DNA of 42,284 bases from a virus (lineage: Duplodnaviria; Heunggongvirae; Uroviricota; Caudoviricetes), in IMG/VR virus record IMGVR_UViG_2675903409_000014; one strand, written 5' to 3'. Below the pieces are notes generated by a model. The model was not told the DNA's origin. It saw nothing but the letters and a program-made list of their open reading frames with translations, and did not search any database. Positions within the stretch are counted from its first letter, which is position 1; the number at the start of each line of letters is the position of its first letter. The position numbers and the translations under genes were made by a program. Positions 1,984 to 29,666 of this stretch are shown here, in pieces.

Positions 1984-2793
1984 TTATTCCTCTGAATTAT
2001 CGATTACACTGTATTCCCCGGTTAATACAGAGGAATCTGCAGGATCGATTGTCAGTGGTTCCTTTTCATCCATTGATACTGCACGCTGGATCTCAATTGA
2101 TACGGGCAGATATTTGAACAGGCGACGAATAGCCGTTTTCTTTGCCATTTCTTCCCAGTGAGTTACCCACGGCCCGTTATTACCAGCTTTACTCTGGCTG
2201 CGCACCAGCTCAATCTGTTTGCGCGTCATAACTTCAAACTGAGTACCTCCGTCTTTCAGTCTTGCGACAGCATAGACGTGGGTAACAGGGGCATCTTCGT
2301 TTTCTCCTGGGCGGTGTATTAACTTTTCATCAAGGCCAAATTCGAAATTAAACTCGTCACCTTCACGGACAACACGGGCTGACAGGCTGGCGATTTGACC
2401 TGAACGGCGAGCCAGATCAATCATGCCGCGATAGCCAATGATTAGCTGAACGTTTTTTTTACCGCTCTTTTCGTTTTTATTACCAAAAGGCAGTAAATAT
2501 GCATGACCGAGGGCGCTACCGGGCTCAAGTCCGAGCTGTGAACACTGTACGATTGCACTGACAAAACTCATAGTGTCACAGTTTCCTAACGCCGGAACTT
2601 TACGAATTTCTGTGGTGGCGATACGGATCATACGTTCAGCCGTCATATGGCGTGGAAGAGCTGCTGCCAGTTGCTCTTTCATTGATGGCTGGTTAATAAA
2701 ACTAATCACGTCGTTATTTTTAATTGCTGCTGGTGCACGGTTTCCCTGAGTTTTTTGCAGATCGGCTTTTGCGATTGGTGGTTGCTTAGTCAT
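1984..2793 (-). CDS. recT: RecT single-strand annealing recombinase
   Basis: 269 aa from [32 protein letters not shown]... matches recalled RecT; SD aagga 8 nt upstream. Confidence 0.95.
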
Positions 2794-5394
2794 TTGCATA
2801 TTCCTTAGCCCAGCGGGGCAGTGATAACGTCTTAATAGCTGGCCATTCATCGGTATTGAGGCAGTCAGCCAGGGTTCGCAGATTGCGGTGATATTCCAGC
2901 TGACCTGCCAGTTTTGCTTCTTCGCCCATCATGAAAATTTCAACCGGATAACGTCCGCATTCAATAGTTGTGCTGGCAACCAGAAAAACGAAAGTTGGCT
3001 GCACTCCAAACTGTGCTTCATAACCGTCACTGTAGAATGCATCCTGAACGTGATAGCGGTAGTCGTAATAAGCGGTTTTGAATCGTTGAATATCCGCCGT
3101 AGTTTTCACGTCCATGATCCAGTGAAATTCAGGGATAATTTTGTCCGGACGGCACCGACACAAAATTGCTGTTTCAGGATCTTCCCAGTAAATTGATGAT
3201 TCAGCGTGTCCGGCGCTTTCAACAAGCCATTGCCCCAGCGGCAAAGCCATAACGCTCTGATACATGAGTTCAATTTTCCGGCCTTCTTCGGCAGTGATAA
3301 CCGTTTTTCCTGTGCTTGCGCATTCCCTCAGAAACGCTTTCTCTTCTTCTTTTCCGGAGTTTGTCCGGCGGTTAAATTCAGGTGCTACGATAAAGCGGTT
3401 ACTGAATTCTTCCGGCTCAAGTACCCGGCAGTGGAAAGCGGTTCCTAAATCGAGCGTTTTTGTCTTTGTGGTGTCCACGGGGGCATTTTTACGCCACAAA
3501 TACAGTGCCGGAGTATCAGCAATGTCATCGAGCTGAGACTTACTGACACCGGGACCCGCGTGGTAATTCTCATTCGAAATTCCGTAATAAATACCNNNNN
3601 NNNNNNNNNNNNNNNNNNNNNNNNNNNNNNNNNNNNNNNNNNNNNNNNNNNNNNNNNNNNNNNNNNNNNNNNNNNNNNNNNNNNNNNNNNNNNNNNNNNN
3701 NNNNNNNNNNNNNNNNNNNNNNNNNNNNNNNNNNNNNNNNNNNNNNNNNNNNNNNNNNNNNNNNNNNNNNNNNNNNNNNNNNNNNNNNNNNNNNNNNNNN
3801 NNNNNNNNNNNNNNNNNNNNNNNNNNNNNNNNNNNNNNNNNNNNNNNNNNATTTCCGGTTCCTGTTGCACTACTGGCTCAGGTTGATTCATATCCGGGCT
3901 GGTTTTTTCCGTTTCTGGCTGGTTCTGGTACACACAATCGCGAGTCTGGATCCCCTTTACCCATTTCGGATCGTTCGGGTCGCTAATTCCGTCAACAAAT
4001 TCACCACGTGATGCAGCAAGCAATTTATCGGCATCGACAGGATTTTTTGATGGAATGTTTTTCCGGGCTTCATGGAGTTCTGCCCGCAGTTCCTGATATT
4101 TCGCATCAACAGAATTTACCTGTGACTGAGCATCCAGCGGCTGCGTGTCCTGATGATGTTCAGTTGCGTCCGGTTCCATTGTTTCAGCCTCTCCCTGTTC
4201 AACTGCCGTTGTTCCAGATGGTTGCGGTTTTTCTTCATCATCCTGTTTTCCTTCTTCTGTTACTCGCTGCGGCATCGGGGCAGAGGAGCGACCGCAGGCA
4301 ATATCCACGATTTCCGGATCAGGGTTGGCATGATCGGTTTCAGTCAGTACTTTGTTCAGATATTCAGTGACGTGCGCGGGGATGACCTCGATCCCAATTG
4401 GTGCTTCTTTTACGGACGCAACCACGATGGCGCGGGAATAATCCAGCCCGCCAGGCATGGTGATGAATTTGTCGCGGAAAACAGAAAAGGGCGGTTTATT
4501 TTCAGCGATAATTTCCTCAATGCGTTTAGCGTGTGCCGGATGAAGGTTATAGATGTCCAGATCCATTGAACGGGCCAGTACGCCAGTGGCTACGTCCCGC
4601 GCCAGTGACGTCAGATCGTGTACGAAACCTTCGCCGCGATCGGTGAGGTTTCCGCCGCCAGCATTAGCACCGGAAGCCGTGCGAGTGATGTGTGAAACAC
4701 GATTACCCTTCATCCACTCTTTTGTCAGCAGTCCTCGATCGGTGTAGTCAGCGTTCAGGTATGCTTCGAAAAAAGCAGTTATCAGTCCCAGGTTTGAATT
4801 ACCAGGATTAGGGAAAACTTTGTCAGTGTCACGAACCAGTTTGTGGAGTTCGCGAATTTCCAGCGGGTCGAGCAGGCTGGTTTTGTGGGAAACAGCCAGG
4901 GCAGTAACAGCCGGTAGTTCTTCAGCCCGAGCAATGTGTAATGCCTGGAGTCCGTCGCGTGAAACGTGCGTTACCGGTTTTTCGCTGCCGTGTTGAGCAA
5001 GCCAACGAATGGGCAGTTCCTGGCCAGAAATTGGGAGTAGCATATTCTCCTCAATCTCAGTCATGTCTTCGCCGTTGACGTTGGTATTGCCTTGATAGTG
5101 AGCGTTGTCTGGTGCTGCTCCCGGTTTTAGTTCCCATGTCATGGAGTCTTTGCTGAGTTGATAGCGTTCACTCCAGGTAAAATCGATCTCACCTTCAGCG
5201 GGCAGGTCATTAACGACAGGAAAATTCGTGGCAACAGCTTTAAAATAGCTGCTCAGTTTTTTACCTGACTTAACGATCAGGTAGTCCAGAGTGGCACAGG
5301 TCGATTCAAAATCGTTGCTTGCCCACAGGACGACGTCAGGTTCACCGGATGATTTTTTCGCTTTCCGTAACAGGAAGAGTGGTTTTGTGCTCAT
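2786..5394 (-). CDS. recE: RecE exonuclease VIII (interrupted by N-run 3596-3850)
   Basis: N-terminal [32 protein letters not shown]... and C-terminal ORF ending ...[11 protein letters not shown] match RecE; frame break coincides with N-run; 8-nt overlap with recT. Confidence 0.9.
3596..3850. other. Undetermined sequence (N-run) inside recE
   Basis: 255 N. Confidence 1.
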
Positions 5395-10577: not shown

Positions 10578-11000
10578 ATGGCGAAACCTTTTACTCCCGA
10601 ACAGCGGGAAGAACTGAAGACGCGAATTGTGGAACTCGTGCATCAGGACGGTCGGGTCACGATTCGGCAGTTGTCAGATGAAACAGGTATCAGTCGTGCG
10701 TCTGTCGGTCGCTTATGCATAGAACTGGTCGCAAGTGGTGATGTATATAATTCTGGCTACGGCTTATTCCCGTCTGAACAGGCTCGCAAGGACTGGCAAA
10801 GCGCCCGCAAAAAACTCTCGAGAGTAAAGGTGAGGAAACCGGTTGTTGTTGATCCGGACCTTATCTGGTCATTACCTGACGGAGAAATACGCCGCTACGA
10901 CAGGCGCCTGAATATAATCTGTCGCGAGTGCCGGAAGAGCGAAGCTATGCAGCGTGTACTGGCTTTCTATCAGGGTAATTTTCAGGAGGCGATACTGTGA
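10578..11000 (+). CDS. Hypothetical nin-region protein at the ydaW position (paralog of 14496..14912)
   Basis: 140 aa; SD aggagg 6 nt upstream of ATG; C-terminal approx 90 aa nearly identical to the second copy (GDVYNSGYGLFPSEQARKDW...RRYDRR.NIICRECRKSE). Confidence 0.7.
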   Translation: MAKPFTPEQREELKTRIVELVHQDGRVTIRQLSDETGISRASVGRLCIELVASGDVYNSGYGLFPSEQARKDWQSARKKLSRVKVRKPVVVDPDLIWSLPDGEIRRYDRRLNIICRECRKSEAMQRVLAFYQGNFQEAIL

Positions 11001-11414
11001 ATGAAATTAGCTATCAGGCTTCAATTACCGCTGGCATTCGCATCAAAGGAGAGGAGCATGGAAATAAAACCAGAAGATGAGTTAAGCAATATCGTTTTAT
11101 TTCCGGTAAAAGAGGATGACCCTCGTAATCAGGTTAATTTTCTTTATGAGCCATCGGAAAGACCATATTGCCATCACGCCTCTGTACGGGTTGACGAAAA
11201 AGAGCGTCAGGTCCGCTGTAAAATCTGCGGTGCGGTTGTGGAGCCGTTTGACTGGATGCTCTCTGTGGCAAAAAGAGAAACCAGACTGGCAGATGATGTA
11301 AGGCTATTGCGCCAGGAGGAACAGGAAAGGCGGAGAAATATAGAAAAGCTGATACAGATTGAGCGTAACGCGAAAGCGCGGATACGCAGGGCGACAAAAT
11401 CCAGAACTGAATAA
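11001..11414 (+). CDS. Hypothetical zinc-ribbon protein
   Basis: 137-aa ORF; CHH...RCKICG cysteine motif; alternative start at 11058 (MEIKPEDEL) with SD aaggagaggag. Confidence 0.55.
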   Translation: MKLAIRLQLPLAFASKERSMEIKPEDELSNIVLFPVKEDDPRNQVNFLYEPSERPYCHHASVRVDEKERQVRCKICGAVVEPFDWMLSVAKRETRLADDVRLLRQEEQERRRNIEKLIQIERNAKARIRRATKSRTE

Positions 11415-11561
11415 TTAAATTTAGCACTGTTAAAAATTTAATCCTTAACCGGAGGGATTTCTGCACCCTCAAATCATCAGGAGACCACCCGAAAGGGCGG
11501 GGAGCAGTCACACATCTGTTTCCGATAGCCCCGTTCTAATGCTACACTCTTTGATATTTTT

Positions 11562-12248
11562 ATGACCCCAATAAACATATTTATGACAGTTGCTGATTTC
11601 AAACGGCCCAAATTGGAGCTCCCAAACGGGGCAAACAAACTACTACTGCACTCTTGCTGTGCTCCATGTTCCGGTGAGGTGATGGAGGCGCTTCAGGCCT
11701 CGGGAATCGACTACACCATCTTTTTCTACAACCCGAACATTCATCCTCAGAAAGAGTATTTAATTCGTAAGGATGAGAATATTCGCTTTGCTGAACAACA
11801 CGGCGTGCCGTTTATTGATGCTGATTACGACACAGACAACTGGTTTGAACGAGCCAAAGGAATGGAATGGGAGCCCGAACGAGGGATCCGTTGCACCATG
11901 TGTTTTGACATGCGTTTTGAGCGGACAGCGCTGTACGCCGCTGAAAATGGTTTCAGTGTGATCAGCAGTTCACTGGGCATTTCACGCTGGAAAAATATGC
12001 AGCAGGTTAACGACTGTGGGCGGCGAGCCGTCGCGCATTATCCGGGCATGGTGTACTGGGATTATAACTGGCGCAAGCAGGGCGGCTCGTCCCGTATGAT
12101 TGAAATCAGCAAGCGCGAAAAATTCTATCAGCAGGAATATTGTGGCTGTGTGTATTCTCTGCGCGATACCAATCTACACCGCAAATCTCAGGGACGCCCT
12201 CTTATCAAAATTGGTCAACTCCACTACGGTAAAGAAGAGAAGGAGTGA
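11562..12248 (+). CDS. QueH/DUF208-like protein (epoxyqueuosine reductase family)
   Basis: 228 aa with [19 protein letters not shown] and QEYCGCVYS motifs recalled as hallmarks of DUF208/QueH. Confidence 0.7.
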
Positions 12249-12270
12249 TTTTATGGGGCACCTTTCTGAT

Positions 12271-12520
12271 NNNNNNNNNNNNNNNNNNNNNNNNNNNNNN
12301 NNNNNNNNNNNNNNNNNNNNNNNNNNNNNNNNNNNNNNNNNNNNNNNNNNNNNNNNNNNNNNNNNNNNNNNNNNNNNNNNNNNNNNNNNNNNNNNNNNNN
12401 NNNNNNNNNNNNNNNNNNNNNNNNNNNNNNNNNNNNNNNNNNNNNNNNNNNNNNNNNNNNNNNNNNNNNNNNNNNNNNNNNNNNNNNNNNNNNNNNNNNN
12501 NNNNNNNNNNNNNNNNNNNN
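12271..12520. other. Undetermined sequence (N-run) after QueH-like gene
   Basis: 250 N. Confidence 1.
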
Positions 12521-12696
12521 AGTGACGGCACTGGTAACGAGGAAAGACCTCTGTGAGGTACGAATCCGAACCGGCCAGACGGAGGTCGCTGTCTTCGTAG
12601 ACTACGAATCCAGGAAGTAAGAGTGACCGGGCGGGGAGCTGATCCCATCCCCGCCCACCTCTGATGTGTCAGGCATCCTCAACGCACCCGCACTTA

Positions 12697-12742
12697 ACCC
12701 GCCCATCGCTGTGATCTCTCAGCGTTTCGGCGGGTTTTTTGT
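12697..12742 (+). terminator. Rho-independent terminator
   Basis: Stem CCCGCC (12698-12703) / GGCGGG (12729-12734) with inner CGCTG/CAGCG pairing, followed by TTTTTTGTTGTTT. Confidence 0.6.
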
Positions 12743-12869
12743 TGTTTATTTCCGGTGAATTTGATTCGCGCACCTTCGCAGATAGAATCGACTCACTTAA
12801 GTAGCGCGCAGGGAGAAGAGGGATGGACCCCGAACAGGGGAGAGCTATTTATCTGGAAGGATTCTGAAG

Positions 12870-13157
12870 ATGAAAATCGAAGAATTGCGTGAAATTTTTA
12901 GTGAAAATGGCCTCTATGCTGTGCGCGTTGAGAATGGAGCGATTGTCAGCCATTGCCGCATTAGATGTTTGCAATCTCAACAAAGGAAGAGCGGTGCTGT
13001 GTTATTTTATTTTTGTAATGGACTTCTGACGGACGGTTTTATTTTGCGTGAGGACGAATTTGTCACATCATTACGGGTTTTGAAAGAGATTGGTTTTAAG
13101 GCTGGTTTTCTGCTTTTGCTGAAGAATAAACTCATCTACAATCTTGAGCAGGATTGA
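12870..13157 (+). CDS. Hypothetical protein
   Basis: 95-aa ORF with SD ggaagga 8 nt upstream; upstream TTGATT-16-TAGAAT promoter-like elements. Confidence 0.5.
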   Translation: MKIEELREIFSENGLYAVRVENGAIVSHCRIRCLQSQQRKSGAVLFYFCNGLLTDGFILREDEFVTSLRVLKEIGFKAGFLLLLKNKLIYNLEQD

Positions 13158-13195
13158 ACTCCTGCTGTGTAACACCGTGCCACCGGAGAAAGCCG

Positions 13196-13444
13196 ATGGC
13201 ACATATACAACTGGTCAAACAAACCTCTTCCGGATTACTTCTCCCGGCGACGCCGGAGAGTTGCGATTTTCTGCATCAAATCAAAATAGGTGAGTGGATA
13301 CACGCAGACTTTAAGCGTGTGTGTAACTACGCATTCCACAAGCGTTTTTTCAAACTCCTGCAACTGGGTTTCGATTACTGGACTCCGGTCGGTGGGGCGA
13401 TCACGCCTCGCGAACGAAAACTGGTGTCCGGTTTCGTTGATTAC
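13196..13444 (+). CDS. nin-region protein, partial copy (3' part masked by N-run), paralog of 18863..19462
   Basis: MAHIQLVKQTSSGLLLPATPESCDFLHQIKIGEWIHADFKRV...; about 97 percent nt identity to 18863-19111. Confidence 0.55.
13196..13444 (+). repeat. Direct repeat copy A (about 249 bp visible, truncated by N-run)
   Basis: About 8 mismatches in 249 nt versus 18863-19111. Confidence 0.8.
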
Positions 13445-13694
13445 NNNNNNNNNNNNNNNNNNNNNNNNNNNNNNNNNNNNNNNNNNNNNNNNNNNNNNNN
13501 NNNNNNNNNNNNNNNNNNNNNNNNNNNNNNNNNNNNNNNNNNNNNNNNNNNNNNNNNNNNNNNNNNNNNNNNNNNNNNNNNNNNNNNNNNNNNNNNNNNN
13601 NNNNNNNNNNNNNNNNNNNNNNNNNNNNNNNNNNNNNNNNNNNNNNNNNNNNNNNNNNNNNNNNNNNNNNNNNNNNNNNNNNNNNNNNNNNNNN
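13445..13694. other. Undetermined sequence (N-run) inside nin-region repeat gene copy A
   Basis: 250 N. Confidence 1.
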
Positions 13695-13718
13695 AATTTT
13701 TACCGGGAGGAAATTTTT

Positions 13719-14480
13719 ATGGAGACTGTTTTTGACGCACTGAAAGCAATGGGAAAAGCCACATCCATAGAACTTGCTGCGCGACTTGATATCAGTCGTG
13801 AAGAAGTGCTGAACGAACTATGGGAACTGAAAAAAGCTGGTTTCGTTGATAAAAGCGCGTACACCTGGCGTGTGGCTGATAACAACGTTCAGCAGGAACA
13901 GCCAATGCAGGCAGAACTGCCGGAAGAAACCACCACGGCAACTGTAGTGAAAATCTCAGAGTGCGATTTAACCGCGACGATTGAACAACGCGGACCACAA
14001 ACGGCGGATGAACTGGCTACGCTGTTCGGTACAACATCCCGCAAAGTTGCTTCAACGCTGGCAATGGCAATCAGCAAAGGACGCCTGATTCGCGTAAACC
14101 AGAACAGTAAATTTCGTTACTGCATGCCGGGCGATAATTTACCAGCAGAGCCGAAAGCTGCATCGGTAGCGGAAACTGATGGTAAAGCCTTTCCTCAGCC
14201 AGCCGGTGTTGCGTTACCAGTACAGGAAGCGGCAACACAGGAAGATATTAAAACAGAAACTGTGGCGGACATTGTGCAGTCGCTGCCATCGTTTACTGAA
14301 ACGCAAGCGGATGACCTAGTTTTACCATCGCTGCATATGGCAAACCGCGAACTGCGTCGGGCGAAAAATCATGTCCAGAAGTGGGAGCGAGTCTGCGCCG
14401 CGCTGCGGGAGCTGAACAAGCACCGGGATATTGTCCGACAGATTGTCGATTCCTCCAGTCGTATTGTGTCGGAAAAGTGA
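13719..14480 (+). CDS. Hypothetical protein, probable winged-helix N-terminus and acidic linker
   Basis: 253 aa [45 protein letters not shown]...; SD gggagg upstream; first codon right after N-run. Confidence 0.65.
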
Positions 14481-14495
14481 TTGCCGGAGGCGCTT

Positions 14496-14912
14496 ATGGC
14501 AAAAGTTTTTACACAGGAAGAGCGTGAAAAAATTAAGGAGCAGGTTGTTGAGTTGGTACGCCAGAGTGGGCGCGAGACGTTAAGGCAACTGGAGGCCAAG
14601 ACAGGTGCGACAAGATATCTGATGAGCATTCTTGCCAGAGAGTTGGTTGCCAGTGGCGATGTATACAACTCTGGCTATGGGTTATTCCCGTCTGAACAGG
14701 CTCGTAAGGATTGGAAAAACGCCCGCAAAAAACTATCCAGGGCAAAGGTGAAAAAAACGGTTGTGGTTGATCCTGACCTTATCTGGTCATTACCAGACGG
14801 AGAAATACGCCGCTATGACAGGCGTCAGAACATAATCTGTCGCGAGTGCCGGAAGAGTGAAGTTATGAAACGTGTACTGGCATTTTATCAAGGAAATCTT
14901 CGGTATTTATAG
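14496..14912 (+). CDS. Hypothetical nin-region protein, second paralog of 10578..11000
   Basis: MAKVFTQEEREKIKEQVVELVRQSGRETLRQLE...; SD ggagg upstream of ATG at 14496 (track ORF starts at TTG 14481). Confidence 0.7.
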   Translation: MAKVFTQEEREKIKEQVVELVRQSGRETLRQLEAKTGATRYLMSILARELVASGDVYNSGYGLFPSEQARKDWKNARKKLSRAKVKKTVVVDPDLIWSLPDGEIRRYDRRQNIICRECRKSEVMKRVLAFYQGNLRYL

Positions 14913-15050
14913 ACGTTACTAGATCAAAGAGCATTAGTTCATATGTAAATTGACATTTTTCTGGCACAGGGGAGAGCTAGCGTGGTTGTCCGCTTTGTGC
15001 CAATAGCGGACATTGCTGGCTCATGGTATGTTAGTTTAAGGAGGCAGGTT

Positions 15051-16073
15051 ATGCCCTGTATTTCGCTGTGGTATAATAGTTGCGCAATTGATACAAGGGA
15101 GCGTTACATCGTGAAAATTGTTTTCGAGGTTAATGGAAAGAAAGTTCCACTAAAATCTTTAAAATACATAAGCAAAAAAGATCAACTCGAAGTAATGAAA
15201 AACTGGTTCTTTGAAAACTTTGAAGATCCGGCAAATGCTTGTCCGTATGAAAGTAGAGAAGGTGGCTATGCTTACATATATGGCGGGCCGTATGATGCGA
15301 GCGAAGAACTACAATCCATCTTCGGTCAATATGTTAAATCTGAGTATATTGAGGAATTAGTAGATGAATTACAAACACAATGTTTTGACTGGTCTGGAAA
15401 CTCAAATAATATAGATGATTGGTACGATGATGATATCTACGACGCTGTAACGTCTTCCGGTAATCCGTATTTAAAATTCATTGATAATATCGATAAAATA
15501 AAAAAACTTGCAAAAGATAAAACTGAACAACAGCAAAAAAACCACTTGCTTAGTTTGCTCTACACGAATGTTATTACAGCTTTGGAAACGCTTTATGTTG
15601 AGCTATTCATTAATTCTATAGAGAAAGATGATGTCTACATAGCCAATTGTATAGAAAAAGGTAAGACTGAATTTAAAGTAAGCAAAGATATTGCTGCGTT
15701 GCCTTTCAAGGGTGAACCCATCGAGAAAATTAGGGGAGAGCTAATCAGGTCAATCAAGGAACACTTGATCAGTGCAAGCTGGCATAGCACTAAAAAGGTA
15801 ATCGACCGCTATGAAGCTACATTCGATATAAAAGTACAAAAAGACTGTCCGATAGAAGCTATTGAATTGGCAACCCTCAATCGAAATCACTTAGTGCATC
15901 GTGGTGGAAAGGATAAAGAAGGGAACCTCGTAGTGATTACAGACCAGGATCTTGAAACGCTGATTGAAAATGCATCGAACCTGGCAATTATGCTCTACAA
16001 CAGTTTAAATGTAGCAACGAATAAAACCACCATTTTGCAACCAGATGACAAACCGTTCATTCATGAATTTTAA
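15051..16073 (+). CDS. Uncharacterized protein A of A+T-rich cassette; C-terminal HEPN-like Rx4H motif
   Basis: Strong SD taaggagg 6-7 nt before ATG 15051; alternative GTG 15111 preceded by TGgTATAAT and aagggag; A+T-rich; motif LNRNHLVHRG. Confidence 0.65.
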   Translation: MPCISLWYNSCAIDTRERYIVKIVFEVNGKKVPLKSLKYISKKDQLEVMKNWFFENFEDPANACPYESREGGYAYIYGGPYDASEELQSIFGQYVKSEYIEELVDELQTQCFDWSGNSNNIDDWYDDDIYDAVTSSGNPYLKFIDNIDKIKKLAKDKTEQQQKNHLLSLLYTNVITALETLYVELFINSIEKDDVYIANCIEKGKTEFKVSKDIAALPFKGEPIEKIRGELIRSIKEHLISASWHSTKKVIDRYEATFDIKVQKDCPIEAIELATLNRNHLVHRGGKDKEGNLVVITDQDLETLIENASNLAIMLYNSLNVATNKTTILQPDDKPFIHEF

Positions 16074-16088
16074 TAGCGCAGGTCATAC

Positions 16089-17090
16089 ATGGATATTCGC
16101 ACACGAAAGACAAAATTTTTAGAGTCGTTAGATTCAACTGAAGTGATACGCAAAGCAGTAAGTCTCGCTATAGATTGCATTATTGATAATCATAATAGTA
16201 ATGAAGATACCCCCTTAGTTATTACCAGCTATGATGATCTCTGTAGAATCCAGGTGCTAAATTATGTACAGGAGTTTTGCGAAGCTGCATTCCCTGATAT
16301 GGATGAATATTACTTTAGTCCTAACATACTTCGCATCAACGGCAAGACTAGTGAAGAAGCTTGTATTAACTTAATTAAACTCTTAAGAAGTACAAAAGGC
16401 ATGCTATTCTGGTCCGATGCCCCATCGTGGTTCGCTAGCCTCCCCGACGGATTATTCCATGTTGTTAACATTGATCAAAAAATCGTTACTCGCGGCCTTA
16501 ATAAGAAAAACTCTAAGCCGACAATAATCAATAAAGATTACAGTGTAGATACACTACTATCAGAGCTATTTTTGAATGGCGCACACATGGAGCAACCCAA
16601 CGTACACAACGTTTCTGAGGGAAACATGAAGTTCTATGATGAATGCCATGCTGGATTAATCAGACCAATACCCGCTCCAATAGGCGCGTCATACGATGAA
16701 GAGATCACAATTAATTCTCCAGATTGGCAAAAGCTCGCGTGTGTAGCTTTACGCCGCTATCAGTCGAAGGAATGTCATGACGGAATGCAATGGGATACAA
16801 CCGATCATGGTTGGACTGATGTAATCGCGTATCCATTCGTCGAAGAAATACAATCAATGGATAATAGTGGTTATCGACAATGTTTAGTTGGGCTGGTCAC
16901 AATAAACAATTCAAATGCAAATTCTCCGTACCTATCTACCGTTTGGATACATCCATTTTATCGCAGGAGAGGGTTATTAAGTAAGTTATGGCCAAAATTA
17001 CAAGAGTTATATGGAAGTAACTTCGAAATTGAGCGACCTAATGAAAATATGAAAGCATTTCTGAAAAGTGCGAAACACGCAGATTACTAA
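16089..17090 (+). CDS. Uncharacterized protein B of A+T-rich cassette; C-terminal GNAT-like motif
   Basis: 333-aa ORF 15 nt after gene A; VWIHPFYRRRGLLSKLWPKL resembles GNAT acetyl-CoA motif A. Confidence 0.7.
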   Translation: MDIRTRKTKFLESLDSTEVIRKAVSLAIDCIIDNHNSNEDTPLVITSYDDLCRIQVLNYVQEFCEAAFPDMDEYYFSPNILRINGKTSEEACINLIKLLRSTKGMLFWSDAPSWFASLPDGLFHVVNIDQKIVTRGLNKKNSKPTIINKDYSVDTLLSELFLNGAHMEQPNVHNVSEGNMKFYDECHAGLIRPIPAPIGASYDEEITINSPDWQKLACVALRRYQSKECHDGMQWDTTDHGWTDVIAYPFVEEIQSMDNSGYRQCLVGLVTINNSNANSPYLSTVWIHPFYRRRGLLSKLWPKLQELYGSNFEIERPNENMKAFLKSAKHADY

Positions 17091-18862: not shown

Positions 18863-19111
18863 ATGGCGCATATACAACTGGTCAAACAAACCTCTTCTGG
18901 TTTACTTCTCCCGGCGACGCCGGAGAGTTGCGATTTTCTGCATCAAATCAAAATAGGTGAGTGGATACACGCAGACTTTAAGCGTGTGCGTAACTACGCA
19001 TTCCACAAGCGTTTTTTCAAACTCCTGCAACTGGGATTCGATTACTGGACTCCGGTCGGTGGGGCGATCACGCCTCGCGAACGAGAACTGCTGTCTGGTT
19101 TCGTTGATTAC
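18863..19111 (+). repeat. Direct repeat copy B
   Basis: Matches 13196-13444 at about 97 percent identity. Confidence 0.8.
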
Positions 19112-19462
19112 CTGTGCGAATCAGTTGGTCGGGAACACACGCCAGCCCTGAGTGATGCCGCAGAGCAATACCTTAACACCGTTGCGACTCGTAGAACCCG
19201 GGATACGGCGTTGCTAAAGTCGTTTGAGGCTTTCCGCGAGTGGGTAACCATTCAGGCCGGATTTTACACCGAGCATATTTATCCGGACGGTAGCCGTGGG
19301 CGTCGGGCAAAATCCATCGCTTTTGCGAATATGGACGAAGTCGAGTTTCAGCAGGTTTATAAATCTGTACTGAATGTGCTGTGGAACTGGATTCTGTTCC
19401 GTAAATTCTCCTCTCAGGAGGAAGTTGAAAATGTGGCCGCACAACTACTGGAGTTTGCGTAA
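18863..19462 (+). CDS. nin-region protein, full-length copy (YbcN-position; family uncertain)
   Basis: 199 aa; immediately upstream of YbcO-like gene; N-terminal 83 codons duplicated at 13196. Confidence 0.75.
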   Translation: MAHIQLVKQTSSGLLLPATPESCDFLHQIKIGEWIHADFKRVRNYAFHKRFFKLLQLGFDYWTPVGGAITPRERELLSGFVDYLCESVGREHTPALSDAAEQYLNTVATRRTRDTALLKSFEAFREWVTIQAGFYTEHIYPDGSRGRRAKSIAFANMDEVEFQQVYKSVLNVLWNWILFRKFSSQEEVENVAAQLLEFA

Positions 19463-19752: not shown

Positions 19753-20273
19753 TTTACCCAACGAATACAGNNNNNNNNNNNNNNNNNNNNNNNNNNNNNN
19801 NNNNNNNNNNNNNNNNNNNNNNNNNNNNNNNNNNNNNNNNNNNNNNNNNNNNNNNNNNNNNNNNNNNNNNNNNNNNNNNNNNNNNNNNNNNNNNNNNNNN
19901 NNNNNNNNNNNNNNNNNNNNNNNNNNNNNNNNNNNNNNNNNNNNNNNNNNNNNNNNNNNNNNNNNNNNNNNNNNNNNNNNNNNNNNNNNNNNNNNNNNNN
20001 NNNNNNNNNNNNNNNNNNNNTGATGCAGAGGCGTTATGTATTGATCGAGTCATAAGTGAGGTGCTGGCAGAGCATCCAGGATTGATTTGCATTCTCCGGC
20101 AACGCTATGAAGGGCGGGGGATGACTAAGCGCAAAATGGCTGAATTGCTAAATGATGCACACCCAGAGTGGTGTTTTAGCACATGCGAAAAACGGATTGC
20201 TAATTGGTTAGCTGTTGCTGAGTATGCCCTATATATTCCCATGCGTGAATCATTTGCTGAGAAAATGGCTTGA
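19749..20273 (+). CDS. Late-gene antiterminator Q-like (interrupted by N-run 19771-20020)
   Basis: Position immediately upstream of late leader and terminator; ATGA overlap with previous stop; C-terminus ...QRYEGRGMTKRKMAELLNDAHPEWCF...; family by position mainly. Confidence 0.6.
   Translation: MIYPTNTXXXXXXXXXXXXXXXXXXXXXXXXXXXXXXXXXXXXXXXXXXXXXXXXXXXXXXXXXXXXXXXXXXXXXXXXXXXXXXXXXXXXDAEALCIDRVISEVLAEHPGLICILRQRYEGRGMTKRKMAELLNDAHPEWCFSTCEKRIANWLAVAEYALYIPMRESFAEKMA
19771..20020. other. Undetermined sequence (N-run) inside Q-like gene
   Basis: 250 N. Confidence 1.
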
Positions 20274-21317: not shown

Positions 21318-21746
21318 ATGGGTTTTCGTAGCGCATCAATTCTTACGTTGATTATTAGTGGGATTATTATCGGGTGCACTGATGCTGTATCGACAAATTA
21401 TCATGACCGTACATCATATTACTCCGATAAAGCAATAGAGACACAGTATGTGAGTTCATCTGAACGTACTTCTGATGTTAGTGAGGATATCCGTCTGTAT
21501 GCCCATCAAATCAAGAGCGCCATCGAAAAACAGTTCGGGGATGCGAGTAAGTATTCAGGAAAAGAGTGTACACTGAGAATGCATATGGCCCCGAATGGCC
21601 TTCTACTGGAGGTTAAAAGAGAAAGTGGAGACCTCGATTTATGTCGTGAAGCGATGAATGCGATAAAGAATGCTGATATACCTGCCCCCCCTTCGCCGGA
21701 AGTATATAAAGTATTTCAAAATGGGGTGCTGGATTTTAAACCCTGA
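21318..21746 (+). CDS. Lipoprotein with TolA C-terminal domain (TolA-III)-like fold, copy 1
   Basis: Signal peptide and lipobox IIGC; mature part YAHQIKSAIEKQFGDASKYSGKECTLRMHMAPNGLLLEVKRESGDLDLCREAMNAIKNADIPAPPSPEVYKVFQNGVLDFKP parallels recalled E. coli TolA C-terminus; TATATAAT about 25 nt upstream. Confidence 0.8.
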   Translation: MGFRSASILTLIISGIIIGCTDAVSTNYHDRTSYYSDKAIETQYVSSSERTSDVSEDIRLYAHQIKSAIEKQFGDASKYSGKECTLRMHMAPNGLLLEVKRESGDLDLCREAMNAIKNADIPAPPSPEVYKVFQNGVLDFKP

Positions 21747-21896: not shown

Positions 21897-22292
21897 GTGG
21901 GATTAAAGAAAATCGTTATGTTGACTTTTTGGGTCGGTTTTGTTGCGGGATGCACACCTTTACACCCTTCAGATTGCCACAAAACTACTGCTACAGGTAG
22001 TTGCAGTTCAGGACGCTGGGATGATCAGGATGAATGGGGGGCGCAAGCGCGGGGAATCAGAGCTGCAATTAATGCCAAACTTGATGAGCCGCATAACTGG
22101 AAAGGGAAAAAATGCAGGTTGCATATGGAATTCTCTCAGGATGGCACGGCGTTAAAAATATCTACCAGTAACGGTGATAAAGCCTATTGCGAAGCGATAA
22201 AGTCCGCAGCTCATAAAGCCAAATTTCCGGCCTTCAACAATCCGGAAGTCTACAGAGATTTTCAGAAATCTGGCTTTGACATGCGAGGTTAG
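21897..22292 (+). CDS. Lipoprotein with TolA-III-like domain, copy 2 (diverged paralog)
   Basis: GTG start with SD gaggag; lipobox VAGC; ...GKKCRLHMEFSQDGTALKISTSNGDKAYCEAIKSAAHKAKFPAFNNPEVYRDFQ follows the same TolA-III pattern. Confidence 0.75.
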   Translation: MGLKKIVMLTFWVGFVAGCTPLHPSDCHKTTATGSCSSGRWDDQDEWGAQARGIRAAINAKLDEPHNWKGKKCRLHMEFSQDGTALKISTSNGDKAYCEAIKSAAHKAKFPAFNNPEVYRDFQKSGFDMRG

Positions 22293-22759: not shown

Positions 22760-23208
22760 TGCCTCCATCATTACGAAAAGTCGTTGCTGCTGCTATTGGT
22801 GGCGGAGCAATTGCTATAGCATCAGTGTTAATCACTGGCCCAAGTGGTAACGATGGTCTGGAAGGTGTCAGCTACATACCATACAAAGATATTGTTGGTG
22901 TATGGACTGTATGTCACGGGCATACNNNNNNNNNNNNNNNNNNNNNNNNNNNNNNNNNNNNNNNNNNNNNNNNNNNNNNNNNNNNNNNNNNNNNNNNNNN
23001 NNNNNNNNNNNNNNNNNNNNNNNNNNNNNNNNNNNNNNNNNNNNNNNNNNNNNNNNNNNNNNNNNNNNNNNNNNNNNNNNNNNNNNNNNNNNNNNNNNNN
23101 NNNNNNNNNNNNNNNNNNNNNNNNNNNNNNNNNNNNNNNNNNNNNNNNNNNNNNNNNNNNNNNNNTCGTGAGATTGAGCGTGAAGTCTGTTTGTGGGGGC
23201 AGCAATGA
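22759..23208 (+). CDS. SAR endolysin, lysozyme (interrupted by N-run 22926-23165)
   Basis: N-terminus [55 protein letters not shown] is a Gly/Ala-rich signal-anchor-release domain; C-terminus [13 protein letters not shown]; TAATG overlap with holin. Confidence 0.85.
22926..23165. other. Undetermined sequence (N-run) inside endolysin gene
   Basis: 240 N. Confidence 1.
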
Positions 23209-25264: not shown

Positions 25265-25401
25265 TATATGGCTGATTTATAATTGTGAGTTTAATATTAT
25301 GTTGACTCACTCATTGATCCAATACCTAACTTTACCAGCAACACCTCCGCCCCCAGTAGCACTGGCTGCTGGGGTGCGTTTTATTCATAAAGCAAGGCTG
25401 T

Positions 25402-26190
25402 ATGAGCGAGAAATTAAAGATAGTCTATCGCCCATTACAAGAATTGTCACCGTATGCGCACAACGCCAGGACGCACAGTACTGAGCAGGTGGCACAACTG
25501 GTAGAAAGTATTAAGCAATTCGGCTGGACTAATCCGGTGCTGATTGACGAAAAGGGCGAAATTATTGCGGGTCACGGTCGTGTTATGGCGGCTGAAATGC
25601 TCAAAATGGATTCTGTTCCGGTCATTGTTCTGTCTGGCCTGACGGATGAGCAGAAAAAGGCGTACCGCCTGGCAGATAATCGCCTGCCGATGAATGCTGG
25701 CTGGGATGAAGATCTGTTGCGGATGGAGCTGTCGGACCTAATCAATGCTGATTTTGATGTCTCCCTGACAGGCTTCATCCCGGCAGAAATTGATGAACTG
25801 TTGACGGATGTTTTGCCCGGTACAGGAAATGAGGAGGAGCCGTATACGACGAAAATTGATACGCCTGTTTATGAGCCGTCAGGCGGTAAACCGGATATCA
25901 GTGAACTGTACGACGATACGAAAACTCAGGAGCTGATCAGCCGGATACGTTCGGCGTCCCTTGATCCTGATATTGAGAAATTCCTCCTGTGTGCAGCAGA
26001 ACGTCACACGGTGTTTAATTTCAGCAGAATTGCGGACTATTACGCTCATGCCCCCGCTGAAATTCAGTGCCTTTTCGAGGAGTCGGCGCTGGTGATCATT
26101 GATTATCAGCAGGCTATTGAAAATGGATTTGTCCGAATGACGCAGCGCATGGTGGAGATCATGCATGGCGGGGAGGAGGAATATGCGTGA
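25402..26190 (+). CDS. ynaK: ParB-like nuclease domain protein (full-length YnaK homolog)
   Basis: 262 aa MSEKLKIVYRPLQELSPYAHNARTHSTEQVAQLVESIKQFGWTNPVLIDEKGEIIAGHGR...; N-terminus matches recalled K-12 YnaK fragment. Confidence 0.8.
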   Translation: MSEKLKIVYRPLQELSPYAHNARTHSTEQVAQLVESIKQFGWTNPVLIDEKGEIIAGHGRVMAAEMLKMDSVPVIVLSGLTDEQKKAYRLADNRLPMNAGWDEDLLRMELSDLINADFDVSLTGFIPAEIDELLTDVLPGTGNEEEPYTTKIDTPVYEPSGGKPDISELYDDTKTQELISRIRSASLDPDIEKFLLCAAERHTVFNFSRIADYYAHAPAEIQCLFEESALVIIDYQQAIENGFVRMTQRMVEIMHGGEEEYA

Positions 26191-27115
26191 TGATTTTTGC
26201 GCCTTTATTCTGACTCACGGGCGACCGGACAAAGTTCTGACTTACCGGACGTTGCGTCGTGCTGGCTATACCGGGAAAATTTTTATCGTTGTTGATGATG
26301 AAGATAAGACACGGCATCAGTACATGGCTGAATTTGGTGAACAGGTGCTGGTATTTTCCAAAGCCGATATTGCTAGTCGTTTTGACGAAGCCGATAATTT
26401 TAGTGACCGCCGCTCAATTTTTTACGCCCGTAATGCCTGTTTCGACCAGGCAAAACTGGTCGGGTGTAAATACTTCATTCAGCTCGATGATGATTATCAC
26501 GAGTTCCAGTTTCGGGTGGATCGCAACTATGACCAGGCCTATTTCCCGATAAGGAAACTGGATGAGATCCTTTCTGAAATGCTTGCGTACTACGAATCAA
26601 TACCTGCTCTTTCCATCGCTATGTCGCAGGGCGGGGATTTTCTTGGTGACAATGGCGGCCATGCTTCGTGGGTGAAACGCAAGGCAATGAACAGCTTTAT
26701 CTGTTCGGTTGATCGACCGTTCTCATTCATGGGGCGCATTAACGAGGATGTGAATACGTACACGAATCTCGGTCGCTGTGGTGAATTGTTTATGACGATC
26801 GGTGCTGTCCAGTTAGGGCAGAAACAGACGCAGAAAAACAGCGGCGGAATGACCGAGCTGTATCTGGATTCCGGAACCTACGTTAAAAGTTTTTACTCCG
26901 TCATGTATGCGCCGTCGTGCGTAAAAATCTCACTTATGGGTGCCAGTCATAAACGCATTCACCATCAGGTCACCTGGAACAACGCTGCAGTAAAAATCCT
27001 TCACGAAAAATACAGGAAGAAGACACCCTGCATATCAATGGGGGTGACAAATGATTCCGTATTCGAAAGTCGAGTCTCTGGCAGCGTGCCGGATGACTGC
27101 ACAACAAATCGCTGA
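26183..27115 (+). CDS. GT-A fold (family 2-like) glycosyltransferase-like protein with DxD motif
   Basis: FCAFILTHGRP...KIFIVVDDEDKT...YARNACFDQAKLVGCKYFIQLDDDY follows the GT2 N-terminal pattern; SD ggaggagg; ATG overlaps ynaK stop; no C-terminal TM helices. Confidence 0.6.
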   Translation: MRDDFCAFILTHGRPDKVLTYRTLRRAGYTGKIFIVVDDEDKTRHQYMAEFGEQVLVFSKADIASRFDEADNFSDRRSIFYARNACFDQAKLVGCKYFIQLDDDYHEFQFRVDRNYDQAYFPIRKLDEILSEMLAYYESIPALSIAMSQGGDFLGDNGGHASWVKRKAMNSFICSVDRPFSFMGRINEDVNTYTNLGRCGELFMTIGAVQLGQKQTQKNSGGMTELYLDSGTYVKSFYSVMYAPSCVKISLMGASHKRIHHQVTWNNAAVKILHEKYRKKTPCISMGVTNDSVFESRVSGSVPDDCTTNR

Positions 27116-27302
27116 CGTTCTGGATGTTGATCTGAACCGACTGAAAGAAAATCGGGAAGCAATGACAGATTTTTATGCGGCCATCCGTAAGGGCAGAGCG
27201 AAAGGTGAAGCCGAGTTACGAGCGGCATTGTTTAAGCTTGCCAGAAAAGGGGATGCCTTTGCTCTGCGCGAACTACTCAGGGTGGATAAAAATCAGGACT
27301 AA
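27051..27302 (+). CDS. Small hypothetical protein upstream of terminase (possible DNA-binding)
   Basis: 83-aa ORF with SD gggggtga; overlaps 3' end of upstream gene by 65 nt; basic C-terminus. Confidence 0.4.
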   Translation: MIPYSKVESLAACRMTAQQIADVLDVDLNRLKENREAMTDFYAAIRKGRAKGEAELRAALFKLARKGDAFALRELLRVDKNQD

Positions 27303-27305
27303 CTG

Positions 27306-28384
27306 ATGAGCAGACCGGACTGGGGGGCGTTGCAGCAGGAGTATATTGCTGAATACACCCGCTCCGGTATATCTCCGGTGGCATGGTGTGAAGCAAGGGG
27401 ACTGAATTACGCAACAGCCCGTCGTTACATCAAAAAAACTCCGAAAAATGCGCAGACAGAAATGTGCAAANNNNNNNNNNNNNNNNNNNNNNNNNNNNNN
27501 NNNNNNNNNNNNNNNNNNNNNNNNNNNNNNNNNNNNNNNNNNNNNNNNNNNNNNNNNNNNNNNNNNNNNNNNNNNNNNNNNNNNNNNNNNNNNNNNNNNN
27601 NNNNNNNNNNNNNNNNNNNNNNNNNNNNNNNNNNNNNNNNNNNNNNNNNNNNNNNNNNNNNNNNNNNNNNNNNNNNNNNNNNNNNNNNNNNNNNNNNNNN
27701 NNNAGCAACGCCAGTCGTATGCTTAGAAATGCCAGGGTTTTTCGCGCTATCAGCTACTTCCGCAATCAGTACCAGAAACGCTATACCGCAGACCTGGATT
27801 TACTAGTGAGTCAGTTGATGGCTATTGTCCTGGCCGACCCCAATCAGCTTGCACAATTTCGCCGTGTTAACTGCCGTTATTGCTGGGGCGAGAATCATCT
27901 CTACCAGTGGCGCGATATAGCAGAATTCGACAAGGCAGCGGCGCAGGCTTCCAGAGATGGCAAACCCGAACCGGAATATGGAGGCCTCGGCTTTGTTGAT
28001 AACGCCATACCCAATCCGGACTGCCCGAAGTGCTGCGGTGAGGGAACGGGACAGCTTTATATGGCTGATACCACTCTGCTTGATGGGGATGCGCGGCAAT
28101 TATATGCAGGGGCAAAATTCGGAAAATTCGGCGTTGAGATCCTGCTGGAGGATAAGGCTGCCGCCCGGCGTGAATTGTTGCGTTTGTTTTCTGCTGGCGG
28201 GGCTTTATGTGCAGATAAGCGGCTACGGGAACTGGAAATTGAACGGCGCAGAATGGAAAACCAGAAGCTGCGCAAAGAGATCGAAACGGTGGAAGATAAT
28301 GAACATCCCCAGCCTGTGGCGATCAATATTAATGTGGTTGATGCCAGAGTAAGGAGTGATGAAGATGATCTCTCCGACGCTTAA
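27306..28384 (+). CDS. Terminase small subunit (interrupted by N-run 27470-27703)
   Basis: N-terminal HTH-like GISPVAWCEARGLNYATARRYIKK; C-terminal part ends 29 nt inside terminase large subunit start; frame break at N-run. Confidence 0.65.
27470..27703. other. Undetermined sequence (N-run) inside terminase small subunit gene
   Basis: 234 N. Confidence 1.
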
Positions 28385-29666
28385 TGTGCCTCAGGCGCGA
28401 TTTCTTTCAATGCCCCATAAATTTAAAGCCTATATTGCTGGTTTTGGCTCGGGCAAAACATGGGTTGGGTGTGGCGGCATATGCAAGGGGATTTGGGAGC
28501 ATCCAGGTATAAATCAGGGATATTTTGCGCCAACGTATCCCCAAATTCGCGATATTTTTTACCCTACAGTGGAAGAAGTTGCTGCTGACTGGGGATTGAA
28601 CGTAAAAATTAATGAGGGAAATAAAGAGGTTCACTTTTATTACGGACGCCAGTATCGGGGAACCACTATCTGCAGATCGATGGAGAAGCCACAAACGATC
28701 GTCGGTTTCAAAATTGGTAATGCGTTGGTGGATGAACTGGACATTTTGCCGAAGGAAAAAGCCAGAACGGCGTGGCGCAAGATAATTGCACGTATGCGTT
28801 ATAAGATTGATGGACTTCGCAACGGTATTGACGTTACAACCACGCCGGAAGGATTCAAATTTGTCTACGAGCAGTTTGTTAAAGCCGTGCGTGAAAAAAC
28901 AGAGCTGGCCTCACTGTATGGTCTGGTGCAGGCATCTACTTTCGATAATGAAAAGAACCTGCCAGCAGATTACATTCCTTCGCTTCTTGAATCATACCCT
29001 CCAGAGCTGATTAAAGCCTATCTTCGAGGACAGTTTACTAACCTGACAAGTGGTACTGTTTACCATCAGTTTGACCGGAAACTGAATAATTGCGAAGAAG
29101 TGGAGCAGCCAGGGGAGCCGATTTATATTGGGATGGATTTTAACGTTGGAAAGATGGCGGGAATCGTCCATGTGCTGCGTTTGGGGCTTCCATGTGCGGT
29201 AACTGAAATCATCAATGCCTACGATACGCCGGATATGATCCGCATCATTAAAGAACGCTTCTGGCTGTATGATGGGAATGATTACCGGAAAGTGAGGGAA
29301 ATTTATATTTATCCAGATGCTTCCGGGGATTCCAGAAAATCAAGTAACGCAAGTACGACGGATATAGCCCAGCTTAAGCAGGCTGGTTTTAACGTTGTGG
29401 TGAACAGCTCGAACCCGCCAGTAAAAGATCGCGTTAACTCAATGAATGCAATGTTCTGCAATGCCAATGGTGAGCGTCGCTATAAAGTTAATGTGAAGCG
29501 TTGCCCGTTATATGCCGAATCTCTGGAGCAACAGGTCTGGGATGAGAAGGGGGAGCCTGATAAAAAATCTGGCAATGATCACCCGAATGATGCCGGAGGT
29601 TATTTCATCGTTAAGCAATTCCCTATTGTCAAACCGACCGGAAGAGTCACATCACTTCGGATTTAA
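28365..29666 (+). CDS. Terminase large subunit
   Basis: Walker A AGFGSGKTW near N-terminus; SD aaggag 8 nt upstream of ATG 28365. Confidence 0.85.
   Translation: MISPTLNVPQARFLSMPHKFKAYIAGFGSGKTWVGCGGICKGIWEHPGINQGYFAPTYPQIRDIFYPTVEEVAADWGLNVKINEGNKEVHFYYGRQYRGTTICRSMEKPQTIVGFKIGNALVDELDILPKEKARTAWRKIIARMRYKIDGLRNGIDVTTTPEGFKFVYEQFVKAVREKTELASLYGLVQASTFDNEKNLPADYIPSLLESYPPELIKAYLRGQFTNLTSGTVYHQFDRKLNNCEEVEQPGEPIYIGMDFNVGKMAGIVHVLRLGLPCAVTEIINAYDTPDMIRIIKERFWLYDGNDYRKVREIYIYPDASGDSRKSSNASTTDIAQLKQAGFNVVVNSSNPPVKDRVNSMNAMFCNANGERRYKVNVKRCPLYAESLEQQVWDEKGEPDKKSGNDHPNDAGGYFIVKQFPIVKPTGRVTSLRI

Follow-up and report, generated by a model that had tools for sequence, protein, structure and literature searches.

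The DNA analyzed here, IMG/VR virus record IMGVR_UViG_2675903409_000014 (Caudoviricetes), is a stretch of 42,284 nucleotides that we refer to, at its full length, as the window. It contains an intact, inducible-looking Rac-type Escherichia coli prophage with integrase, recT/recE, sieB, replication genes, a lysis cassette, trkG, and packaging, head and tail genes. Our analysis concerns two overlapping genes on its plus strand: a ParB-like gene (25402..26190, 262 amino acids), recognized by its open reading frame (ORF) and by matches to ParB_N, phrog_620 and Foldseek entries, and a gene for a GT-A glycosyltransferase (GT) of the TAGT family (26183..27115, 310 amino acids), assigned by Pfam and phrog_842 and named 'GREB1-related protein' by PGAP. 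The two are linked to each other across a wide range of viruses, and we tentatively consider them a module for the glycosylation of phage DNA. The initial annotation of the locus, made from the sequence alone, had placed both genes where the ORFs confirm them and had described the first as a full-length homolog of ynaK. This holds: in E. coli K-12, where the GT and head genes are deleted, ynaK stops at 87 amino acids, next to what remains of a tail gene. We also considered ydaY as a possible K-12 remnant of the GT gene and rejected it, as ydaY is a remnant of a tail gene.

The GT ORF called by the program spans 26165..27115 (316 amino acids), but the real start is the ATG at 26183, because all homologues open with MRDDFCAF, because a Shine-Dalgarno sequence, GGAGGAGG (26172-26179, plus strand), precedes this codon, and because the PGAP protein WP_001614535.1, encoded in a 100%-identical locus, starts there. 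The 310-residue length and the overlap with the ParB-like gene, both part of the initial annotation, follow this start: the start codon of the GT (26183-26185) and the stop codon of the ParB-like gene (26188-26190) lie within a shared segment of 8 nt, ATGCGTGA (26183..26190, plus strand). Such an overlap, together with the preceding GGAGGAGG, resembles what is typical of translational coupling. Both ORFs are real genes rather than chance reading frames, because the GT scores 118.8 bits against TAGT and 8e-104 against phrog_842, the ParB-like protein scores 1.7e-90 against phrog_620, and both genes have dN/dS values of 0.06-0.14 among enterobacterial prophages, which indicates strong purifying selection.

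The GT aligns to the TAGT (TET-Associated Glycosyltransferase) model of Pfam, PF20691, over profile positions 4-205 of 205 (E-value 4.1e-34, cut-off 27.5 bits), and its top structural matches in BFVD are all TAGT-domain proteins; no solved structure was matched by sequence at E<=1. The fold is that of the GT-A enzymes (Rossmann-like nucleotide-diphospho-sugar transferases). The motif D102-D103-D104 (26486..26494, plus strand), part of the segment FIQLDDDY at residues 98-105, is invariant across 30 homologues (alignments A1 and A3). In GT-A enzymes this DxD motif binds the metal ion and the nucleotide sugar. The GT-A pattern and the DxD motif had been noticed in the initial annotation and are confirmed, and the fold comparison proposed there returned GT-A and TAGT by both Pfam and structural matches; what had escaped it was that the protein belongs to an already named family, TAGT/JGT/GREB1. 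Further invariant residues in the alignments of 30 and 10 homologues are R14, Q149-G-G-D152, N187-E-D-V190 and H260-H261. Of these, R14, D102-D104 and E188-D189 correspond to the signature R...DDD...ED(Y/F) described for phage DNA GT-A enzymes (bioRxiv 10.1101/2023.12.21.572611), with V190 rather than Y/F following the ED. The conserved core has an isoelectric point (pI) of 8.4, and the protein ends in about 25 unconserved residues that overlap the next ORF. The absence of C-terminal membrane helices, likewise predicted from the outset, agrees with the Kyte-Doolittle 19-residue means, which reach a maximum of 1.08 in the GT and at most 1.25 in either protein, below the strength of a transmembrane (TM) segment. 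Neither a signal peptide nor a TM segment was found in the GT, the Pfam scan gave no match to PF00535 (Glycos_transf_2), and PADLOC assigned it to no defence system.

The ParB-like protein matches Pfam ParB_N (PF02195) at 8.7e-7 with 29.3 bits (cut-off 26.3), and Foldseek aligns it with Noc, ParB, PadC, KorB and Srx at probability 1.0. In the structural model, an N-terminal ParB/Srx domain binding nucleoside triphosphates (NTPs; residues 1-95, with the P-motif G57-H-G-R60) and a short helical region (residues 103-134; 25402..25821 for both, plus strand) are followed by a linker predicted to be disordered (residues 136-170, pLDDT 31-37 in the isolated model) and by a helical C-terminal domain (CTD; residues ~172-255, 25915..26166, plus strand). 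Residues 3-141 match phrog_498, 'DNA methyltransferase', at 6e-51, residues 10-144 match the PADLOC model MTase_II at 1.5e-38, and a tblastn search with the N-terminal module retrieves 497 phage records at 30-55% identity, many of them annotated as DNA methylases. By these similarities, residues 1-140 are the module that heads many phage DNA methyltransferases. The linker carries the motif Y148-T-x-K-I-D-T-P-V-Y-E-P-S160 (25843..25881, plus strand; alignments A2 and A6), in which Y148, P155 and Y157 are invariant from the E. coli through the archaeal virus homologues.

The CTD, with its invariant residues H202, Q222, E226 and D234 (alignments A6/A7), is specific to this family and is more conserved across phyla than the NTP-binding domain. 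A Pfam search with the CTD was empty at E<=10, and a comparison with the PDB gave nothing meaningful, only spurious matches to repeat proteins. At E<=1e-3 the CTD family comprises 1184 representatives of 50%-identity clusters, nearly all of them placing the domain at the end of 250-300-residue proteins, and the CTD marks the TAGT-associated ParB-like proteins. Although public protein data contain over 1000 cluster representatives of the region encoded by 25837..26187 (residues 146-262), the Pfam copy searched has no model for it, and it deserves a family definition of its own.

Nothing points to the nuclease activity that the initial annotation had ascribed to this protein: no nuclease-family profile was matched in the Pfam, PHROG and TIGR scans, and the protein combines a ParB/Srx NTP-binding fold with the CTD, its closest N-terminal relatives being methyltransferase fusions. 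'ParB-like nuclease' is a historical name. The canonical partition ParB model TIGR00180 is hit at 38.1 bits, under its cut-off of 58.45, and parA is absent from the ORF scans of the window and from the PGAP annotation of the identical prophage. In the identical sequence of strain EC2 (locus L001, 20103..20360), PGAP marks the intact 262-residue ynaK ORF as a truncated pseudogene of 258 nt, 'missing C-terminus', likely because it relied on K-12 YnaK or ParB-methyltransferase fusions as evidence proteins. The annotation of many E. coli genomes is apparently affected by this artefact in a systematic way.

To assess how closely the two genes are associated, we analyzed two sets of loci, one of 80 diverse IMG/VR loci retrieved by a GT alignment led by a distant sequence, the other of 79 scorable loci retrieved by the ParB CTD. 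A ParB-like ORF occurs in 78 of the 80 GT-side loci, nearly always directly upstream and on the same strand, and the two remaining contigs end less than 300 nt from the GT. From the other side, all 79 CTD loci encode a TAGT on the same strand, which is adjacent in 76. The pairing is thus close to obligate in both directions, and an overlap between ParB stop and GT start is the rule among the 80 loci. Variants of the arrangement keep to the same theme. One contig encodes a single in-frame ParB::TAGT fusion of 522 amino acids (L119, 9287..10855); several carry a second, divergent TAGT paralogue between the ParB and GT genes; and in one, four TAGTs stand in tandem ahead of a TagD-like cytidylyltransferase (L163, 8249..12152). 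An NAD-dependent sugar epimerase is inserted in two contigs, in one of them between ParB and TAGT (L180, 4367..5386), and in two the CTD is found as a stand-alone gene 3' of the GT (for example L096, 6079..6471). Every gene entering the module is sugar-related, and none is base-activating.

The pair is also present in isolated viruses, namely Lactobacillus phage phi jlb1, the L. delbrueckii phages c5, LL-Ku and phiLdb, Nocardia phage NTR1 and the archaeal virus HHTV-2, with GTs that share some 43% of their residues with the E. coli enzyme; between viruses of E. coli, Lactobacillus, Nocardia and Haloarcula, identity within the pair is about 40-45%. A literature search on ynaK and HHTV-2 returned nothing useful. 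Among 72 loci of the E. coli type, the ParB-like gene is intact in all 72 and the GT gene in 68. Of 5426 complete E. coli genomes, 1607 give a match and 867 hold at least 80% of the 2-kb region.

The location of the pair is conserved as well. In three metagenomic contexts a ParB-like gene and a TAGT gene with overlapping ends lie directly 5' of three different terminase systems, and overall the pair adjoins the unrelated terminase families Terminase_6N, Terminase_3, TerL_ATPase and GpA. In the window, which the initial annotation had described as placing the pair immediately upstream of terminase, terminase genes do follow; the large subunit TerL (28356..29666, plus strand; T4-type Terminase_6N/6C, Pfam 3.7e-33 and 3.4e-10) is however preceded by a terS-like ORF of 83 amino acids (27051-27302, plus strand) and by a small terminase gene (27306-28384, plus strand; labelled 'terminase small subunit' by PGAP in locus L001, which is identical). 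The region 27051..28384 covering these two matches phrog_309 at 8e-23. On the other side, a terminator-like hairpin with a 10-bp stem followed by TGCGTTTTAT (25351..25374, plus strand), found in a consensus scan by pattern match alone, sits after the trkG moron, 27 nt ahead of the start of the ParB-like gene. The GC content of the pair is 0.47-0.50, like that of phage late genes; that of trkG is 0.38. Seven masked runs of N, 233-255 nt each, interrupt the window (3596-3850, 9152-9405, 12271-12520, 13445-13694, 19771-20020, 22926-23165 and 27471-27703), and none of the seven falls inside the pair. They break several ORF calls, for example that of terS at 27306..28384 (affected by the run at 27471-27703), and perhaps do not keep the true length.

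Our tentative interpretation, which we hold to be the most probable one, is that the pair constitutes a ParB-assisted, late-expressed DNA glycosylation module. The module would be transcribed with the late packaging genes, and the GT would transfer a sugar from a nucleotide sugar to phage DNA after its replication and shortly ahead of packaging. No catalytic function is recognizable in the ParB-like protein, which would serve as the obligate partner of the GT: the CTD and conserved linker motif of this protein would dock the enzyme, and a ParB dimer would hold or activate it on double-stranded DNA. The N-terminal module presumably plays a similar role where it is fused to phage DNA methyltransferases, and the likely gain would be that the injected genome is shielded from host nucleases. 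We infer DNA as the acceptor, activation or tethering of the GT by ParB, the timing and the anti-restriction benefit.

Several lines of evidence lead us to this proposal, since all non-metazoan family members with known substrates act on DNA; the characterized ones, T2/T6 TAGT, the kinetoplastid base-J glucosyltransferase (JGT) and the GT-A enzymes acting on 5-hydroxymethylcytosine (5hmC), act on DNA bases. Furthermore, the N-terminal module of the partner otherwise sits on DNA methyltransferases, and the pair keeps its slot directly 5' of the terminase genes, packaged DNA being what must bear a protective mark. It also persists in viruses that, as to hosts and virion proteins, have little in common but DNA; the only obvious constants across the carrier hosts are DNA, sugar nucleotides and the partner protein. 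The initial annotation had suggested, as an inference, that the pair could modify DNA or a virion component or act in anti-restriction; of these acceptors, family membership and context favour DNA over a virion protein. The GT-A motifs, the sugar-related genes inserted in other viruses and the purifying selection on both genes also count in favour of our proposal. The ParB::TAGT fusion and the putative translational coupling fit a stoichiometric complex. A role of ParB in directing modification enzymes during packaging was already proposed in 2013, as quoted in PMC8256090.

Finally, there is a phage DNA-base enzyme known to require a ParB-like protein that lacks a DNA-binding domain: ParB176, consisting of a nucleotide-binding domain and a CTD, activates the thymine dioxygenase 5mYOX176 on double-stranded DNA (O'Toole et al., PNAS 2026, PMC13229309). 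The resemblance extends to a position beside a post-replicative DNA enzyme and often near terminase, and to NTP-motif residues that are dispensable or variable. In those systems, however, the partner is a dioxygenase and not a glycosyltransferase, and the GTs went with the ParB-independent clade. The ParB-N::DNA methyltransferase fusions (phrog_498; N6_N4_Mtase fusions, Kaljevic et al. 2025) share the N-terminal 140 residues at 30-55% identity, are common in prophages and gave several tblastn matches within the first few hundred bases of phage records. There the module is covalently fused, whereas here, with the exception of L119, it has its own CTD and a separate, putatively coupled enzyme gene.

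The principal difficulty lies in the acceptor. TAGT enzymes with known substrates transfer sugar onto 5-hydroxymethyl-pyrimidines or onto a sugar already there. We compared essentially all window ORFs of at least 90 amino acids with Pfam and consulted the PGAP annotation of the identical prophage. Among these ORFs there is no TET/JBP oxygenase (PF12851), no thymidylate-synthase-like hydroxymethylase and no C5-methyltransferase, and the PGAP annotation names no enzyme making a hydroxylated base; a hidden TET/JBP, ThyA-like or C5-methyltransferase gene in the window was rejected by these two comparisons. The masked runs are not a hiding place for such a gene, because each is at most 255 nt and too short. 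In phage phi jlb1, 48 of the 54 features (34.3 kb of a 38-kb genome) name no such enzyme, and in the three metagenomic contexts with precomputed Pfam assignments no Tet_JBP is recorded within 8 kb. The alpha- and beta-GTs were likewise not among the window ORFs, the PGAP annotation or the three metagenomic contexts. A census of 204 neighbor-gene clusters within 5 kb of the module, searched against Pfam, yielded mostly terminases, portals and replication genes, along with two sugar epimerase/dehydratase and two N6/N4 methylase clusters; neither Tet_JBP nor thymidylate synthase is among the census matches listed, so that these are not recurrent neighbors, single cases being possible.

These negative results weigh against DNA glycosylation by the pair, as do properties of the partner. 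With its pI of 4.5 the ParB-like protein is very acidic, it has no Pfam match to a helix-turn-helix and no recognizable DNA-binding domain, and in the alignment the P-motif arginine R60 is missing from the NTR1 and L119 homologues. To our knowledge, O-glycosylation of unmodified DNA is without precedent. If DNA is glycosylated by the pair, the acceptor is either the product of an unrecognized activity or a canonical base modified by new chemistry. The latter, in which the pair sugar-tags a canonical base directly with no prior oxidation or hydroxymethylation, strikes us as distinctly improbable; N-glycosylation of an exocyclic amine would be conceivable, compare the arginine N-GlcNAcylation by the GT-A enzymes NleB/SseK. 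If true, this would add a new kind of post-replicative DNA modification, widespread in temperate bacterial and archaeal viruses and carried in about one sixth of the complete E. coli genomes.

A further point against DNA comes from within the family itself, as the TAGT-family protein GREB1 O-GlcNAcylates the oestrogen receptor ER-alpha (PMC7968844). The GT of the pair might in the same way O-glycosylate a protein, which we consider possible but rather unlikely. The most economical acceptor would be its own ParB-like partner at Y148, T149 or Y157 of the linker, another DNA-packaging protein being possible as well, and the ParB-like protein would then be a substrate or adaptor instead of a DNA tether. 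The partner is indeed the macromolecule that always co-occurs with the GT, and its linker, predicted to be disordered, carries an invariant motif rich in hydroxyl groups. Protein glycosylation would also account for a window in which the source of a DNA acceptor was not found, and the multi-GT variants would suit the building of a glycan chain, whatever the acceptor. A docking peptide, however, explains a conserved linear motif equally well, the N-terminal module is common to DNA methyltransferases, and the microbial, viral and kinetoplastid members with known substrates all act on DNA. A virion protein is an unlikely acceptor, because terminase, portal and capsid types vary among the carriers. 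GREB1 itself, whose GT domain is homologous and after which PGAP names the window protein 'GREB1-related', is a cytoplasmic metazoan protein of 1949 amino acids without a ParB partner or viral context.

Alternatively, the GT could perform a second step on an acceptor made in trans, extending an existing hydroxymethyl- or glycosyl-pyrimidine as in T2/T6. The pyrimidine would be supplied by a co-resident phage or by a highly divergent oxygenase unseen by Pfam, and the enzyme would then be idle on its own prophage DNA. The label of phrog_842 and the known activity of the T6 enzyme on glucosyl-hydroxymethylcytosine speak for this possibility, and thousands of 5mYOX-like contigs escape the Pfam TET/JBP model (O'Toole et al., PMC13229309). 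The T2/T6 beta-glucosyl-hydroxymethylcytosine alpha-glucosyltransferase (TAGT, PF20691) is a member of the same Pfam family and PHROG, a phage-encoded, soluble GT-A enzyme that acts post-replicatively. It adds the second glucose to glucosyl-5hmC generated by dCMP hydroxymethylase and an alpha- or beta-GT, though, and these genes are absent here. The T-even TAGTs are not ParB-linked; tblastn at E<=1e-3 did not retrieve them (Aeromonas phage 65 gave 22% identity), and the window GT is less than about 22% identical to T-even-type enzymes as opposed to 43% to other ParB-linked ones. With early and late regions of the window scanned or annotated for ORFs of at least 90 amino acids without a candidate, with seven masked stretches of limited length, and with none named among the 48 viewed features of phi jlb1, we regard a supply in trans as quite improbable. 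The purifying selection and near-universal intactness also speak against a gene that is useless alone.

It is least probable, to the point of being very doubtful, that the pair is a moron acting on a host small molecule or the envelope, for example by lysogenic conversion or by interfering with a nucleotide of immune signalling: the slot between lysis and terminase genes often carries morons, trkG adjoins, and the ParB fold binds various NTPs (PMC12704722), but the GT has no signal peptide, TM segment or PADLOC defence-system match, the GC content of the pair is that of late genes and not of trkG, and the pair spans Gram-positive, Gram-negative, actinobacterial and archaeal viruses with differing envelopes. 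The GtrB bactoprenol glucosyltransferases of serotype-converting prophages are likewise prophage-encoded GT-A enzymes, but they belong to the GT2 family, have C-terminal TM helices and work together with GtrA and GtrC, while the window GT has neither TM helices nor a Glycos_transf_2 domain.

The proposed DNA glycosylation by the ParB-GT pair can be compared with that by the phage GT-A DNA GTs depending on 5mYOX or C5-methyltransferase and by the kinetoplastid base-J glucosyltransferase (Burke 2021; Pyle 2023/2024), with which the window enzyme has in common both its GT-A fold and its R...DDD...ED motif; those phage clusters, too, include sugar epimerases and sequential GTs. Those enzymes, however, use 5hmC or 5-hydroxymethyluracil from a neighboring TET/JBP oxygenase, of which there is none in the prophage or as a recurrent neighbor. 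Solitary enzymes of this type have been noted before: about 65% of mined GT contigs are without a 5mYOX or ThyS neighbor (bioRxiv 10.1101/2023.12.21.572611), a solitary TAGT was counted in 288 of 753 GT-encoding phage genomes, and two studies from 2023-2026 left the function of many solitary phage DNA-type GT-A/TAGT enzymes unexplained. ParB and GT domains appear as co-occurring annotations in metavirome surveys (PMC13229309; bioRxiv 10.1101/2023.12.21.572611), and glycosyltransferases go unmentioned in a survey of the ParB fold (PMC12704722).

The naming of the gene family and the proposal of 2013 that ParB accompanies phage DNA-modification genes are thus already known. Apparently new is the link between a large TAGT subfamily and, whichever of the two genes one starts from, a ParB-like protein whose CTD is undescribed, part of which link may be described in Iyer et al. 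2013, the paper that defined TAGT, and so are, not being in the literature we found, the oxygenase-less nature of the module and the common occurrence of an intact copy in E. coli. A large conserved subset of the 'solitary' GTs is accordingly not solitary but locked to a ParB-like partner, and the intact E. coli prophage copy makes the question of the acceptor testable in the easiest host. The outcome could be a new DNA-glycosylation acceptor, a second class of ParB-activated enzymes or a role in protein glycosylation, and any of them bears on phage anti-restriction and on DNA-labelling tools.

Other parts of the prophage show further unusual features. Compared with prophage locus L001 of EC2, which is otherwise identical, the window has some 5.3 kb of additional sequence 5' of the GT. 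The early genes are duplicated or mosaic (about 10578..14912 and 18863..19462), with two DUF977 genes (10578..11000 and 14481..14912), one DUF1627 gene, and a partial and a full DUF1367 gene (13154..13735 and 18863..19462, respectively). The early/replication region also encodes a homolog of the epoxyqueuosine reductase QueH (11562..12248, plus strand, 228 amino acids, Pfam 1.9e-65), an unusual cargo for a lambdoid phage that could manipulate tRNA queuosine or be a simple moron. Two hypothetical genes on the plus strand, one of 363 amino acids with a weak match to a HEPN/RES N-terminal domain (14982..16073, 1.9e-4) and one of 333 amino acids with a weak GNAT match (16089..17090, 9e-4; frameshifted in strain EC2), could form an accessory or defence pair; PADLOC gave no match for either. 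The recE gene (2786..5394, minus strand) appears as two ORFs of 649 amino acids (Exonuc_VIII N-terminal domain) and 237 amino acids (PDDEXK DUF3799), compared to a single 866-residue gene in strain EC2, and either a frameshift or the masked stretch close by may have caused the split. Directly 5' of the lysis cassette, two proteins with a TolA C-terminal domain are encoded on the plus strand (21318..21746 and 21897..22292; Pfam 2.4e-23 and 1.3e-14).

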